Source: Escherichia coli
GTDB lineage: Bacteria; Pseudomonadota; Gammaproteobacteria; Enterobacterales; Enterobacteriaceae
Strand: one strand, 5' to 3'
Assembly: GCF_001677475.2 (NCBI RefSeq)
Contig: NZ_CP015229.1
Length of the DNA stretch: 64,000 nt
The position numbers were made by a program, and so were the translations under genes. This document shows positions 3,199 to 59,232 of this stretch, piece after piece (the stretch's first letter is position 1; each line of letters begins with the position of its first letter). The notes below the pieces were generated by a model. That model worked only from the letters and a program-made list of their open reading frames with translations, was not told the origin of the DNA and did not search any database.

Positions 3199-4536
3199 TT
3201 AATCTTTGCTTATTGGTGCATCTAAGGGATACGGGTTTTTATGCAGCCTGTTGTAATTCAGCGCATACATGGCGGTGATGACCATCAGGGTGACAAATGA
3301 CCACATAACCTCTTTCGCCCCGGACCCCACAACGGCCCAAATGCAGTAGAGGAAGGCAATGGTAGTAACAGCCAGATATGCCGGGCGTGCTTTACCAAAG
3401 TGACCGTGGCCGAGCAGCAGTAACGCCGCACAGGTGTAAAGATATGGCACCAGTGTAAAGATGACCGAGACGGAAGAAACCAGACCGAACTCTTTGGTCG
3501 CGTTTGGTGAAATGCTGCTGAGCTGGAAGATGGTCATCAAAATACCGACGATAATCAGCCCCGCCACTGGCGTACCCGCTTTATTTACACGGGCAAAAAT
3601 CGGTGGGAACAGTCCGTCATCGGCAGCGGCTTTCGCCGTTTGACCCGCCAGCAATGTCCAGCCGCCCAGTGAACCTAAGCAACCCGCAGCTGCGCAGAAG
3701 GAAACAATGGCCCCGGCGGTGTCACCCAACGCCATCCGTGCGGCATCACCGAATGGCGAGGCAGAAACGCGCAGTGCGGCATTAGGGATCATCCCCATAA
3801 TCGCGGTGGTGGAGAGTACATAGCAAACGGCGGCAATCAATACCCCACCAATGGTGGCGATAGGGACATTGCGTTTCGGGTTTTTCACCACACCTGCGGC
3901 AACGGAGGCACTTTCCACACCGATGAACGACCACAGCGTAACGTTAAGGGTACTTTGAATTGCACCGAAGGTGCCCAGGCCGCTGACGTTCCATGCCGCC
4001 ATATAGGTTTCACCACGGAACCAGAACCAGCCAAATACGGCAATCCCGACGATGGGGATCAGCGCCAGCACGGTGGCAACGGCCTGCACGCGGGTGATCA
4101 TTTTCGGACCGACAATGTTCAGCAGGACGAAGATCCACAGCACCACGACGCAGGTGATGGTTAATACCAGTGGATCTTTCAGAATCGGGAAGAAGTAACT
4201 TAAATATCCTACGCCAATGACCACCATGGCGATATTGCCGATCCAGCAGGCCAGCCAGTAGAGGACGTTGGTTTGATAACCGAGAAACGGGCCAAAGCAG
4301 CGGCGGGCGTAAGCGTAAGAACCACCAGGACTTGGGTCGAGGAACGACATTTTGGCGTATACCATCGAGAGCCCCAGCGCACCGATAATCGTCACCAACC
4401 ATCCATAAATGGCAATCCCGCCAGTGGAGGCCAGGTTTGCAGGTAACAGAAAAACACCTGACCCCATAATATTCCCCGACACCATCAGGGTGACGGGGAT
4501 TAAGCCCACTTTGTGAGCATCAGCATCCGAAGACAT
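3199..4536 (-). CDS. adiC: Arginine:agmatine antiporter AdiC, 445 aa
   Basis: Protein [36 protein letters not shown]... recognised as AdiC (APC family). Confidence 0.95.
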
Positions 4537-42891: not shown

Positions 42892-43458
42892 ATGGCAACG
42901 TACTATAGCAACGATTTTCGTGCTGGTCTTAAAATCATGTTAGACGGCGAACCTTACGCGGTTGAAGCGAGTGAATTCGTAAAACCGGGTAAAGGCCAGG
43001 CATTTGCTCGCGTTAAACTGCGTCGTCTGCTGACCGGTACTCGCGTAGAAAAAACCTTCAAATCTACTGATTCCGCTGAAGGTGCTGATGTTGTCGATAT
43101 GAACCTGACTTACCTGTACAACGATGGTGAGTTCTGGCACTTCATGAACAACGAAACTTTCGAGCAGCTGTCTGCTGATGCAAAAGCAATTGGCGATAAC
43201 GCTAAATGGCTGCTGGATCAGGCAGAGTGTATCGTAACTCTGTGGAATGGTCAGCCGATCTCCGTTACTCCGCCGAACTTCGTTGAACTGGAAATCGTTG
43301 ATACCGATCCGGGCCTGAAAGGTGATACCGCAGGTACTGGCGGCAAACCGGCTACCCTGTCTACTGGCGCTGTGGTTAAAGTTCCGCTGTTCGTACAAAT
43401 CGGCGAAGTCATCAAAGTGGATACCCGCTCTGGTGAATACGTCTCTCGCGTGAAGTAA
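42892..43458 (+). CDS. efp: Translation elongation factor P, 188 aa
   Basis: Protein [46 protein letters not shown]... recognised as EF-P, including the modified-Lys loop PGKGQAF. Confidence 0.97.
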
Positions 43459-43466
43459 TGCGGTTG

Positions 43467-43490
43467 TGGTGCGGCCTGCAGGCTGCACCA
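43467..43490 (+). terminator. Hairpin downstream of efp (possible terminator)
   Basis: Stem TGGTGC...GCACCA enclosing the palindrome GCCTGCAGGC; weak T-tract. Confidence 0.4.
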
Positions 43491-43509
43491 TCACTTATTC
43501 AGGTCAGAG

Positions 43510-43635
43510 ATGATGAAACGCCTTATCGTTCTTGTTTTGCTTGCCAGCACGCTGCTCACGGGCTGTAACACCGCTCGCGGTTTCGGCGAAGACATCAAAC
43601 ATCTCGGCAACTCCATCTCTCGCGCTGCCAGCTAA
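43510..43635 (+). CDS. ecnA: Entericidin A small lipoprotein, 41 aa (absent from the ORF track)
   Basis: ATG 43510 to TAA 43633..43635 encodes [41 protein letters not shown] (signal peptide plus lipobox LTGC). Confidence 0.85.
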
Positions 43636-43745
43636 TTTTTCTTCTCTTCCGAAAAATCATCAGATTTCCGTCATTTTTGGCGATGTTGTCTATTATTAAT
43701 TTGCTATAGGCAAACATAAATAACATTACCTAAAAGGAAGACGTT

Positions 43746-43892
43746 ATGGTGAAGAAGACAATTGCAGCGATCTTTTCTGTTCTGGTGCTTTCAACAGTAT
43801 TAACTGCCTGCAACACCACGCGTGGCGTTGGTGAAGACATTTCTGATGGCGGTAACGCGATTTCTGGTGCAGCAACGAAAGCGCAGCAATAA
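43746..43892 (+). CDS. ecnB: Entericidin B small lipoprotein, 48 aa (absent from the ORF track)
   Basis: ATG 43746 to TAA 43890..43892 encodes [48 protein letters not shown], paralogous to EcnA, with a GGAAG SD. Confidence 0.85.
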
Positions 43893-43900
43893 GCAATAAC

Positions 43901-43935
43901 GGTACGACAGCTGTGTCGTGCCGTTTGTTTTCTCT
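43901..43935 (+). terminator. Putative ecnB terminator
   Basis: Stem GGTACGAC...GTCGTGCC (43901..43922) followed by GTTTGTTTTCTCTG. Confidence 0.55.
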
Positions 43936-44004
43936 GCGATAGTCACAAAGGTAATAGTTGAAATTCCCCTGCCACCTGGCAAAATATCCGTTCAACCATC
44001 AGCT

Positions 44005-44049
44005 TTGCAGGACGACCTGCAAACGCGTCTTTTCACCGGGGACGGCCCC
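44005..44049 (+). promoter_or_regulatory. Candidate guanidine-II (mini-ykkC) riboswitch in the gdx 5' leader
   Basis: Two hairpins each closed by an ACGR tetraloop: TTGCAGG-ACGA-CCTGCAA (44005..44022) and GGGG-ACGG-CCCC (44038..44049), 15 nt apart, 19 nt upstream of the gdx ATG; this is the mini-ykkC architecture typically found upstream of SugE/Gdx-type exporters. Confidence 0.65.
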
Positions 44050-44067
44050 AATTCTCCGGAGCCTGAT

Positions 44068-44385
44068 ATGTCCTGGATTATCTTAGTTATTGCTGGTCTG
44101 CTGGAAGTGGTATGGGCCGTTGGCCTGAAATATACCCACGGCTTTAGTCGTTTGACGCCGAGTGTTATTACTGTGACGGCGATGATTGTCAGTATGGCGC
44201 TACTTGCCTGGGCGATGAAATCGTTACCAGTAGGGACGGCTTATGCCGTGTGGACGGGTATTGGCGCAGTCGGCGCGGCCATCACCGGCATTGTACTGCT
44301 CGGTGAGTCCGCTAACCCGATGCGCCTGGCGAGTCTGGCGTTAATCGTATTGGGGATTATTGGTCTGAAACTCAGCACTCATTAA
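44068..44385 (+). CDS. gdx: Guanidinium exporter Gdx (SugE; SMR family), 105 aa
   Basis: ORF 43918..44385 recognised as SugE/Gdx; the recognised N-terminus [25 protein letters not shown] starts at ATG 44068 with a GGAG SD. Confidence 0.92.
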
Positions 44386-44915
44386 CTACCGGGTTGCTGT
44401 ACCCAAATAAACTTACTGACATCAAACCCTTCCCGGGTCGCGACTGCCAGCATTTCCTGTTTCACTTCGTCAGAAATGGTTGGCGTGCGGGAGAGTATCC
44501 ACAGGTAGTCGCGGTCCGGACCGCAAACCAGCGCATGGCGGTATTCCCGATCGAGCGCAATAACGTTATAACCGCCATAGAAAGGACCAAAGAATGACAC
44601 TTTCAGCGCAGCGCGAGTTGGTGCGCCGGTAAAGTATGCTTTCCCTTCACTCTGTTGCCACATTTCTCTGTCAGGGTTATAGCCTTTATTAATGACATTC
44701 AGGCCGCCGTCATCCCGCAGGCTGTATGTTGCGGTGACTTTTTCCAGTCCACGTTCAAAGCGGTGATCAAAACGGGCAATCTCATACCAGGTACCGAGAT
44801 AGCGTTTAGCATCGAAATTATTCACTACGGTCACGCCACGGGGCGGCGTAGGAGAACTGCAGGCAACGACCAGAAATGCAGCTGTCGCTGCGGCAACGAG
44901 AGGGAGCAGGCGCAT
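44382..44915 (-). CDS. blc: Outer-membrane lipocalin Blc, 177 aa
   Basis: Protein [49 protein letters not shown]... recognised as Blc; convergent with gdx and overlapping it by 4 nt. Confidence 0.92.
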
Positions 44916-51031: not shown

Positions 51032-52534
51032 ATGCCTCACACGATAAAAAAGATGAGTCTGATAGGACTCATATTGATGATCTTTACTTCCGTATTTGGA
51101 TTTGCCAATAGCCCATCGGCTTATTACTTAATGGGTTATAGTGCGATTCCCTTTTATATATTTTCTGCATTGTTATTCTTTATTCCATTCGCCTTAATGA
51201 TGGCTGAAATGGGCGCTGCGTATCGCAAAGAAGAAGGAGGTATCTATTCCTGGATGAATAATAGTGTCGGACCACGTTTTGCCTTCATTGGTACGTTTAT
51301 GTGGTTTTCCTCTTATATCATCTGGATGGTGAGCACCTCCGCTAAAGTTTGGGTACCGTTCTCAACATTTCTCTACGGTAGCGACATGACCCAGCACTGG
51401 CGTATTGCCGGACTGGAACCTACGCAGGTGGTTGGTCTGCTGGCAGTGGCATGGATGATTCTGGTCACCGTCGTTGCTTCAAAAGGGATTAATAAAATTG
51501 CCCGCATTACTGCGGTGGGCGGTATTGCAGTAATGTGCCTGAATTTAGTATTACTGTTAGTAAGCATTACTATTTTGTTATTAAATGGTGGGCATTTCGC
51601 GCAGGATATTAATTTCCTGACATCACCGAACCCAGGATATCAATCCGGTCTGGCGATGCTATCGTTTGTGGTATTTGCCATTTTTGCCTATGGCGGAATT
51701 GAAGCGGTTGGTGGTCTGGTCGATAAAACGGAAAATCCAGAAAAGAACTTTGCCAAAGGTATTGTTTTTGCCGCTATTGTTATTTCAATCGGTTATTCGC
51801 TGGCAATATTTTTATGGGGCGTCAGCACAAACTGGCAGCAGGTATTAAGTAATGGTTCCGTTAACCTCGGCAATATTACCTATGTGCTGATGAAGAGCCT
51901 CGGGATGACGCTGGGTAACGCACTGCATTTGTCACCTGAAGCGTCATTGTCGCTGGGCGTATGGTTTGCGCGTATTACCGGACTTTCGATGTTCCTCGCT
52001 TATACCGGTGCGTTCTTTACGCTTTGCTATTCACCGCTGAAAGCCATCATCCAGGGGACGCCGAAAGCGTTGTGGCCGGAACCGATGACGCGCCTGAATG
52101 CGATGGGGATGCCGTCTATCGCCATGTGGATGCAGTGCGGGTTGGTTACTGTCTTCATCCTGCTGGTTTCGTTTGGTGGCGGTACCGCATCGGCGTTCTT
52201 TAACAAGCTGACGCTGATGGCGAACGTGTCTATGACGCTTCCTTACCTGTTCCTCGCGCTGGCTTTCCCATTCTTTAAAGCACGTCAGGATCTCGACAGA
52301 CCATTTGTGATTTTCAAAACGCGTATGTCGGCAATGATTGCGACGGTGGTTGTCGTTCTGGTGGTGACATTTGCGAACATCTTCACCATCATTCAGCCTG
52401 TGGTTGAAGCCGGAGACTGGGACAGCACATTGTGGATGATTGGCGGCCCTGTCTTCTTCTCGCTGTTAGCGATGGCGATATACCAGAACTATTGCAGTCG
52501 CATGGCGAATAAACCTGAGTTAGCTCTCGACTGA
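51032..52534 (+). CDS. yjeM: Putative APC-superfamily transporter YjeM, about 500 aa
   Basis: ORF 50990..52534 is a polytopic membrane protein recognised as YjeM; start assigned to ATG 51032 (AAGGATGG SD); in-frame alternatives are GTG 50990 and ATG 51053. Confidence 0.8.
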   Translation: MPHTIKKMSLIGLILMIFTSVFGFANSPSAYYLMGYSAIPFYIFSALLFFIPFALMMAEMGAAYRKEEGGIYSWMNNSVGPRFAFIGTFMWFSSYIIWMVSTSAKVWVPFSTFLYGSDMTQHWRIAGLEPTQVVGLLAVAWMILVTVVASKGINKIARITAVGGIAVMCLNLVLLLVSITILLLNGGHFAQDINFLTSPNPGYQSGLAMLSFVVFAIFAYGGIEAVGGLVDKTENPEKNFAKGIVFAAIVISIGYSLAIFLWGVSTNWQQVLSNGSVNLGNITYVLMKSLGMTLGNALHLSPEASLSLGVWFARITGLSMFLAYTGAFFTLCYSPLKAIIQGTPKALWPEPMTRLNAMGMPSIAMWMQCGLVTVFILLVSFGGGTASAFFNKLTLMANVSMTLPYLFLALAFPFFKARQDLDRPFVIFKTRMSAMIATVVVVLVVTFANIFTIIQPVVEAGDWDSTLWMIGGPVFFSLLAMAIYQNYCSRMANKPELALD

Positions 52535-52684
52535 TCATATGAAATCCTGCAACTCATCGTCTCTCCGGCGATGAGTTGTCAGGAAGTAATGCGTATGGAT
52601 GATACTCTCCAGGGCCGGTGATAACTGAAGATGATGTTAAGCTGCTAAATGAGCCACGTTGACATCATTTGGCAGCTTCATGCA

Positions 52685-59075: not shown

Positions 59076-59232
59076 AAATTTGAAAAGTGCTGCAAAGCAC
59101 AGACCACCCAATCGCAGTATTTCGAATTGCGACAAGGCGGCAACTGAACGAATCCTTGGGAGCTTACAAAAGTAAGTGACTAAGGTGAGTGAAGGCAGCC
59201 AAGGCAGTAGCGGTTCGAAAGACGAAGATTAA

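Follow-up and report, generated by a model that had tools for sequence, protein, structure and literature searches.

The ecnA-ecnB entericidin locus on the Escherichia coli chromosome: two mini-lipoprotein genes in tandem between efp and sugE

What occupies the short interval between efp and sugE (gdx) on the Escherichia coli chromosome, and do the names toxin and antitoxin describe its products? The question is raised by a 64,000-nucleotide stretch of E. coli DNA (hereafter the window), in which an original prediction placed a tandem pair of mini-lipoprotein genes encoding peptides of 41 and 48 aa. Both open reading frames (ORFs) were recovered on the + strand, between efp and gdx, at exactly the coordinates predicted. 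Their absence from the ORF track, which had also been remarked, fits the default limit of the ORF tool (60 aa), under which both fall. The practical lesson is that genes below an ORF-length threshold escape such a track and are recoverable by careful reading of the sequence. The genes and their neighbours are the following.

42892..43458, efp, the 5' neighbour of the ecnA-ecnB pair
43510..43635, + strand, ecnA coding sequence, ATG start, 41-aa precursor (NF007319, PF08085, lipobox rule, RefSeq annotation)
43746..43892, + strand, ecnB coding sequence, ATG start, 48-aa precursor (NF007487, PF08085, lipobox rule, mass-spectrometric detection)
44069..44386, sugE/gdx (SMR transporter gene), the 3' neighbour of the pair

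The entericidin identity proposed for the two peptides was borne out by profile searches. The 41-aa product scored 114.9 bits (E = 1e-33) against the NCBIfam equivalog NF007319, "lipoprotein antitoxin entericidin A" (curated cut-off 86 bits), and the 48-aa product scored 121.9 bits (E = 6.2e-36) against NF007487, "lipoprotein toxin entericidin B" (curated cut-off 94 bits). On the model of its partner, each peptide reached ~45 bits and stayed under the cut-off, which makes the assignment of one to A and of the other to B specific. The Pfam family PF08085 (Entericidin) matched both over its full model (1-20), at residues 21-40 of EcnA (E = 7.6e-06) and 24-43 of EcnB (E = 5.9e-07); in each case this 20-residue span begins one residue past the lipobox cysteine. 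The peptides are 55% identical, in agreement with the paralogy claimed for them, and from the Cys codon on their DNA is identical at 39/60 positions. Judged by these comparisons, ecnA and ecnB are tandem paralogues. EcnA and EcnB have exactly the protein sequences of their K-12 counterparts (100% identity to WP_000977757.1 and WP_000239596.1, respectively), and RefSeq annotates these identical proteins under the names ecnA and ecnB, with the gene order efp-ecnA-ecnB-sugE as in the window. We are highly confident that the locus as a whole is explained as the chromosomal entericidin genes ecnA-ecnB of E. coli, a tandem mini-lipoprotein gene pair, a judgement weighted to identity, biogenesis and regulation; for these three aspects taken jointly, we regard the explanation as virtually certain. 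The locus is already known: it was described in 1998, it has curated profile models, and essentially all E. coli genomes carry its annotation.

Can short ORFs such as these be trusted as genes? Within 2.3 kb around the locus, 39 ORFs reach a length of 20 aa or more, including antisense ones over both genes (43491..43616 and 43730..43840). Short ORFs are thus frequent by chance, and the ecnA and ecnB ORFs alone are not proof of genes. Chance ORFs at one or both sites, with the real feature being non-coding or on the opposite strand, would fit this abundance, and they would also fit the silence of a small-protein mass-spectrometry study on EcnA itself (PMC12529367). Several observations speak against such a reading. 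The E-values on the entericidin models are 1e-33 and 6e-36, the lipobox is kept across genera, and EcnB peptides have been found by several laboratories (PMC12529367). Furthermore, the substitutions relative to Salmonella and Klebsiella cluster at third positions of the + frame. Between the E. coli and Salmonella ecnB genes there are 23 synonymous and 2 nonsynonymous codon differences, and 23/26 base differences fall at third positions. The corresponding codon counts are 24 and 4 for ecnB of Klebsiella, and 8 and 3 for the mature part of ecnA in Salmonella. As read from these substitutions, purifying selection is acting on the + frame of ecnA and ecnB, a pattern that rules out the antisense ORFs. 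A search of Rfam returned no RNA family over ecnA or ecnB. The probability that chance ORFs account for one or both sites is negligible, and for ecnB this reading is effectively refuted already.

The signal peptides and the lipoboxes LTGC and LTAC that had been noted in the two sequences were recovered by a PROSITE PS51257-type rule. This rule asks for six non-charged residues, then [LIVMFWSTAG]x2, [LIVMFYSTAGCQ], [AGS] and Cys, with the Cys at positions 15-35 and K or R within the first seven residues. It identifies LTGC with Cys19 in EcnA and LTAC with Cys22 in EcnB. Both sequences also agree with the usual build of a lipoprotein signal, in which a basic N-region and a hydrophobic core precede a lipobox of the form [LVI][ASTVI][GAS]C. 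All of the E. coli, Salmonella and Klebsiella sequences (10/10) conform to the rule, and all have Asn at +2. The Pfam model LPAM_1 gave a weak match to EcnA. The predicted parts of the two precursors are located as follows.

43510..43563, + strand, predicted EcnA signal peptide (codons 1-18)
43564..43566, + strand, codon of the EcnA cysteine predicted by the lipobox rule to be lipidated (Cys19)
43746..43808, + strand, predicted EcnB signal peptide (codons 1-21)
43809..43811, + strand, codon of the EcnB cysteine predicted by the lipobox rule to be lipidated (Cys22)

In the standard lipoprotein pathway, Lgt places a diacylglycerol on the lipobox Cys, and once LspA has cut the signal peptide off, the N-terminus exposed in this way is N-acylated by Lnt. 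Residues other than Asp at +2 lead to Lol-dependent sorting to the outer membrane. By this scheme, EcnA (at Cys19) and EcnB (at Cys22) would be processed in turn by Lgt, LspA and Lnt. Since their +2 residue is Asn and not Asp, the Lol system is predicted to take both entericidins to the outer membrane. The lipidation of EcnB at Cys22 is a curator assertion in UniProt entry P0ADB7, and the failure of intact EcnB to elute in top-down mass spectrometry is consistent with it (PMC12529367).

The resulting mature lipopeptides would be 23 aa (EcnA) and 27 aa (EcnB) long. Their helical hydrophobic moments (0.62 and 0.43, respectively) were above those of 5000/5000 shuffles. This strongly amphipathic periodicity is in line with the amphipathic nature that has been attributed to the entericidins, and an amphipathic helix is a plausible form for the mature peptides. 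Doubt about a helix comes from the glycine content of mature EcnB (5 of its 27 residues) and from the fact that the peptides have no relative with a solved structure; PDB sequence searches with both peptides gave no matches.

How are the two genes expressed? The original prediction gave each gene its own upstream region. This is documented for ecnB alone, which has a sigma-38 promoter (PMC5389655); the 51-nt efp-ecnA spacer contains no consensus promoter. What this spacer does contain is a hairpin.

43462..43495, + strand, GC-rich hairpin just past the efp stop codon (-22.6 kcal/mol, z-score -2.76)

The hairpin has no T tract and so was not scored as terminator-like. Its stem is partly conserved in Salmonella and Klebsiella, and it may be a leaky terminator or a stabiliser that lets read-through from efp reach ecnA. 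The Shine-Dalgarno pairing of ecnA is weak (-3.2, +1.9 and -2.2 kcal/mol in E. coli, Salmonella and Klebsiella, respectively). EcnA is probably a low-level product, perhaps made via efp read-through, and it goes unmentioned in the small-protein study cited above (PMC12529367).

The signals around ecnB are the following.

43688..43697, + strand, TGTCTATTAT, probable extended -10 element of the sigma-S (sigma-38) ecnB promoter (putative placement)
43692..43697, + strand, TATTAT, -10 hexamer of the ecnB promoter with C at -13 (putative placement)
~43702-43704, + strand, probable ecnB transcription start, overlapping TGCTATAGG
43702..43710, + strand, TGCTATAGG, -10-like element within the initial transcribed sequence of ecnB (putative placement)
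43733..43739, + strand, AAAGGAA, ecnB Shine-Dalgarno sequence, 6 nt 5' of the ATG
43898..43925, + strand, ecnB intrinsic terminator with a 12-pair stem and a 4-nt loop, followed by TGTTTTCTCT to 43935

Sigma-S promoters have the -10 consensus TGnCTATA(A/C)T, with C at -13 and a weak or absent -35 element. TGTCTATTAT agrees with this pattern, including the C at -13, its exact coordinates being probable ones. In an alignment of E. coli, Salmonella and Klebsiella, the block that holds it, TGTCTAT(T/G), is the best-conserved stretch of the ecnA-ecnB spacer. In the in vitro experiments of PMC5389655, sigma-38 polymerase transcribes from the ecnB promoter and sigma-70 polymerase hardly uses it. The same source describes a -10-like motif with adenine at +5 that causes pausing at +17/+18, the pausing being abolished by a +5G substitution. 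This sigma-38-dependent promoter-proximal pause site reportedly overlaps a site for OmpR, which is described there as a repressor of ecnB (PMC5389655). The probable promoter coordinates (-10 at 43692..43697, start at ~43702-43704) follow from the sequence and the numbering in PMC5389655, and we infer that TGCTATAGG at 43702..43710 matches the published pause signal. TGCTATAGG had been considered as the -10 of ecnB itself. It was dropped in that role because the -10-like pausing motif of PMC5389655 falls around transcript positions +2..+9, and because the better-conserved TGTCTAT(T/G) block sits 10 nt upstream in the three-species alignment.

A scan for the sigma-70 consensus found no promoter 5' of ecnA or ecnB, including the 110-nt ecnA-ecnB spacer. 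For ecnB this null result is uninformative since the promoter is of the sigma-S type. The sole match in the scan (43958..43985) lies 5' of the sugE riboswitch. A terminator-like site at 44004..44023 proved to be the first hairpin of that guanidine-II riboswitch, outside the ecn locus.

The Shine-Dalgarno sequence of ecnB is good, pairing with the 16S 3' end at -5.6 to -5.8 kcal/mol in E. coli, Salmonella and Klebsiella, and no significant fold was detected in the leader and early coding region (43704..43790; z = +1.33). The terminator hairpin that had been seen after ecnB was confirmed, together with its T tract. It starts 6 nt past the stop codon, has a folding energy of -21.4 kcal/mol (z-score -4.80), and was equalled by 0/200 shuffles. 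The ecnB gene has been used as a sigma-S marker and is induced ~7- to 13-fold by inhibition of LolCDE, a treatment that does not induce ecnA (PMC5105897).

The expression of ecnB has also been connected to the sigma-E response. The sigma-E-dependent small RNA MicA has been shown to repress ecnB mRNA in both E. coli and Salmonella (PMC3551931). The MicA sequence was found between luxS and gshA in E. coli genomes (Rfam RF00078, 83.9 bits), and duplex prediction offers one site for its 5' end on ecnB mRNA.

43747..43777, + strand, predicted pairing site for the MicA 5' end, spanning the ecnB start codon and codons 2-11

The predicted duplex between MicA nt 1-28 and this site has an energy of -24.2 kcal/mol, and 3/1000 shuffled targets were as good. 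Pairing is predicted at the same site in Salmonella ecnB. We predict from this duplex model that MicA acts at 43747..43777 of the ecnB mRNA. Taken together, ecnB is a transcription unit of its own, with a sigma-S promoter, a repression by OmpR that has been described, repression of its mRNA by MicA, and a strong terminator.

How widespread is the pair, and can it be lost? A 601-bp query covering the locus matched 5425/5426 complete E. coli genomes. The copies in complete E. coli genomes are nearly always single, chromosomal, and annotated efp / ecnA / ecnB. In UPEC129, a natural strain, both ecnA and ecnB are missing through the loss of 508 bp that correspond to 43494..44001 of the window. The deletion is flanked by two 7-bp direct repeats (ACCATCA) and leaves efp, the riboswitch and sugE intact. 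Plasmid-borne copies of the ecn genes were considered as a possible mobile element, an idea that was rejected since the records proved to be chromosomal pieces filed as plasmids. Among them are Mb-scale entries, a linear piece of E. coli DNA (5.3 kb) that sits in an assembly of Klebsiella oxytoca, and a circular record of 24.5 kb with the genes groEL-efp-ecnAB-ampC-frd.

What, then, do the entericidins do? The original prediction reported that they are described as an antidote/toxin-like pair affecting stationary-phase bacteriolysis. This is an accurate account of the literature, as Bishop et al. 1998 is represented in the papers that cite it; the model itself is contested. The names antidote and toxin originate with that study, as related in PMC7296081, PMC5389655 and PMC5105897. 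In the accounts given by the citing papers, activation of the locus depends on sigma-S and takes place in stationary phase at high osmolarity, repression runs through OmpR, and overproduced EcnB causes a bacteriolysis that ecnA counteracts in cis. The product names derived from this work fit poorly, more than 25 years on, with the viability of knockout strains and the very high abundance of EcnB. The reading that we favour is dose-dependent antagonism rather than a true addiction module. The entericidins would be lipopeptides of the envelope that act on membranes in a dose-dependent way and belong to the regulons of stationary phase and envelope stress; EcnA would antagonise its paralogue EcnB, without the pair being a classical addiction module. 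As a physiological mechanism, we consider this proposal evenly poised between being right and being wrong.

The proposal of 1998 can be taken at its word: the locus would be a genuine chromosomal addiction module, with EcnB as bacteriolytic toxin and EcnA as antidote, serving stationary-phase lysis or post-segregational killing. RefSeq and NCBIfam product names still carry the antitoxin/toxin wording, and the lysis on EcnB overproduction and its counteraction by ecnA in cis, as reported in citing papers, are what such a module would do. An EcnB homologue of Enterobacter C6-6 is likewise reported, in a citation within PMC7296081, to be bacteriolytic to Flavobacterium. The gene arrangement points both ways. 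The genes are adjacent and the antidote comes first, as in a toxin-antitoxin operon; however, a 110-nt spacer, the promoter of its own that ecnB has (PMC5389655), and the induction of ecnB alone (PMC5105897) do not describe a tight autoregulated operon. It is hard to see the cell as being held by an antidote when the Keio collection contains a viable ecnA mutant (PMC7296081) and when constructed deletions of ecnB and of the ecnB promoter grow and evolve normally (PMC12625342). EcnB has been shown to be among the most commonly detected and most abundant small proteins; in minimal medium a cell holds up to ~70,000 copies, and loss of clpP by mutation raises the level over 100-fold (PMC12529367). 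Healthy cells hold large amounts of the supposed toxin, and EcnA is unreported in the same study. Under LolCDE inhibition ecnB rises without ecnA, and it is the supposed antidote that has the weaker ribosome-binding site. UPEC129 lost both genes through a simple 508-bp deletion. No PADLOC-DB family matched EcnA or EcnB at E up to 1, and a match to the Pfam model Ibs_toxin was set aside as noise (E = 2.5). Against this record, a genuine addiction module appears quite improbable.

The abundance of EcnB also fits the opposite reading, namely that the entericidins are harmless structural or surface lipoproteins of the envelope, acting for example in outer-membrane vesicles, in adhesion or in tolerance of stress. 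Overproduction would then lyse cells non-specifically, by overloading the lipoprotein pathway, and EcnA would be a weakly expressed paralogue and no antidote. The envelope regulons of sigma-S and sigma-E include ecnB together with osmB-like genes (PMC3551931, PMC5105897), and both ecnA and ecnB are dispensable. In Agrobacterium, the homologue Atu8019 has been shown to be surface-exposed, to be carried on vesicles and to promote docking, and its overproduction caused no lysis, nor did the protein disrupt liposomes (PMC7296081). This non-lytic member indicates that membrane-lytic activity is not general to the entericidin family. In Moraxella and Xanthomonas, mutants of family members have phenotypes in adherence, biofilm formation and stress (PMC7296081). 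However, an inert EcnA hardly fits the counteraction of EcnB lysis by ecnA that is reported in the papers citing Bishop et al. 1998. The tandem pair is kept in E. coli, Salmonella and Klebsiella, and mature EcnA is conserved, from which it can be argued that EcnA has a selected function. Furthermore, the literature consulted contained no adherence, vesicle or stress phenotype for E. coli. We regard purely harmless lipoproteins with an overloaded pathway as a somewhat unlikely explanation. A related claim is advanced tentatively, as a possibility that we do not expect to prevail: EcnA and EcnB would not be a toxin-antitoxin pair; as plentiful lipopeptides of the outer membrane under sigma-S and sigma-E control, they would instead serve in its structure, in vesicles or at the surface. 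If a non-toxin-antitoxin reading is true, the product names in thousands of genome records are wrong, and the matter concerns the gene family generally. Between these readings, we favour dose-dependent antagonism between two membrane-active paralogues.

How does the locus compare with systems that are already known? Its closest counterpart is the ecnA-ecnB locus of E. coli K-12 (Bishop et al., 1998, J Mol Biol 280:583), which has the same proteins, spacers, terminator and promoter block, and the same neighbours (efp on one side and sugE-blc-ampC-frdDCBA on the other). Of 601 bases, 4 differ from K-12: two upstream of ecnB (43667 and 43670), one synonymous change within ecnB (43868), and one just past the terminator stem (43932). 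None of them alters a protein, and none has a known consequence. From cadA to amiB, the window is a chromosome segment colinear with that of K-12, with ~97-99% identity, and it is not K-12 itself.

In Salmonella and Klebsiella, the order efp-ecnA-ecnB-sugE is the same, and the lipobox and the Asn at +2 are kept. EcnB is nearly invariant, with 2 amino-acid changes in Salmonella and 4 in Klebsiella, whereas the EcnA signal peptide varies in length (precursors of 41, 44 and 43 aa at the E. coli, Salmonella and Klebsiella loci, respectively). Between ecnB and sugE, Salmonella has a gene for a LuxR-type regulator, encoded on the opposite strand, whereas E. coli has a 176-nt spacer alone. The Salmonella gene is presumably the equivalent of ecnR of Citrobacter.

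Among other small envelope proteins, the sigma-S lipoproteins of the OsmB type are likewise short lipobox proteins induced by sigma-S and by envelope stress, and ecnB and osmB have been paired as sigma-S markers (PMC5105897). OsmB has no sequence kinship to the entericidins, for which the entericidin family was the only NCBIfam or Pfam family above threshold, and the entericidins, unlike the OsmB-type lipoproteins, form a paralogous tandem pair. A resemblance also exists to the type I toxins Ibs, Hok and TisB, which like EcnB are tiny membrane-directed peptides that are harmful when overproduced and are under small-RNA control. In the ecn locus, by contrast, a paralogous protein rather than an antisense RNA is the proposed antidote. 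MicA acts in trans on a regulon, whereas type I modules have a dedicated antitoxin RNA. Lastly, toxins of the Ibs, Hok and TisB type are inner-membrane helices, whereas EcnB is a predicted secreted lipoprotein.

A natural deletion of the entericidin locus was found by genome comparison in E. coli UPEC129 (NZ_CP071522.1). This strain lacks ecnA, ecnB and their terminator, the junction lying at 3594/3595 of its locus (L005). The deletion measures 508 bp, is equivalent to window 43494..44001 and is bounded by short direct repeats. As a result of the deletion, the sugE riboswitch directly abuts the efp hairpin in UPEC129. Most of the ecn region is missing in only 4 of the 5426 complete E. coli genomes compared. 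The repeats and the riboswitch lie in the window as follows.

43487..43493, first 7-bp direct repeat (ACCATCA) bounding the UPEC129 deletion
43995..44001, second 7-bp direct repeat (ACCATCA) bounding the UPEC129 deletion
44004..44050, + strand, guanidine-II riboswitch (mini-ykkC, RF01068), Rfam match

The riboswitch reached 49.3 bits in Rfam, where the gathering score is 32, and the start codon of sugE/gdx lies 18 nt downstream of it. A simple scan had called a terminator-like element here; this call was rejected, the hairpin being the first of the guanidine-II riboswitch according to Rfam.

The ecnB upstream region in the window differs from that of K-12 at two bases, 43667 and 43670, which correspond to about -37 and -34 relative to the inferred ecnB start. 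The G at 43670 is also found in Salmonella but not in K-12 or in strain Santai, which is among the tied best matches (99.7%). We know of no effect of these two differences on control by OmpR or sigma-S.

In the ecnB region (about 43636..43892), the promoter is said to have 7 bp in common with the end of IS1 (bioRxiv 10.1101/2024.05.24.595737; PMC12625342). The locus also occurs in records labelled as plasmids. NZ_CP048309.1 is a 24.5-kb circular ‘plasmid’ carrying groEL-efp-ecnAB-ampC-frd, and this circle may be an amplicon or else an assembly artefact. A Klebsiella oxytoca assembly contains a linear ‘plasmid’ of 5.3 kb (NZ_CP069925.1, locus L009) that carries ecnA-ecnB-sugE-blc-ampC-frdDCB. 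All nine of its annotated proteins have WP accessions identical to those of K-12, and the record has the look of contaminating E. coli chromosome or of a misfiled contig, not of a plasmid.

The window also differs from K-12 elsewhere. K-12 has the small genes yjeN and yjeO between yjeM and mscM (about 740 bp); the window lacks both, and a 187-bp stretch (52498..52684) stands in their place. Between the first and second of three tRNA-Gly(GCC) genes, the window has about 119 extra bases (59112..59230), giving start-to-start spacings of 233 and 111 nt compared with 112 and 111 nt in K-12. In the yjeI-yjeJ (40686 region) and yjeJ-epmB (41819 region) spacers, the window lacks two segments of about 146 and 141 bp that K-12 has; these segments may be repetitive extragenic elements.

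The arrangement downstream of ecnB distinguishes the window from Salmonella. In Salmonella, ecnB and sugE are separated by a gene for a LuxR C-terminal-type regulator, encoded on the opposite strand (locus L004, 2920..3507); this gene is probably the ecnR of Citrobacter. In the E. coli window, by contrast, the same interval (43893..44068) is only a 176-nt spacer. The guanidine-II riboswitch ahead of sugE/gdx follows the already-known layout for the guanidinium exporter Gdx.
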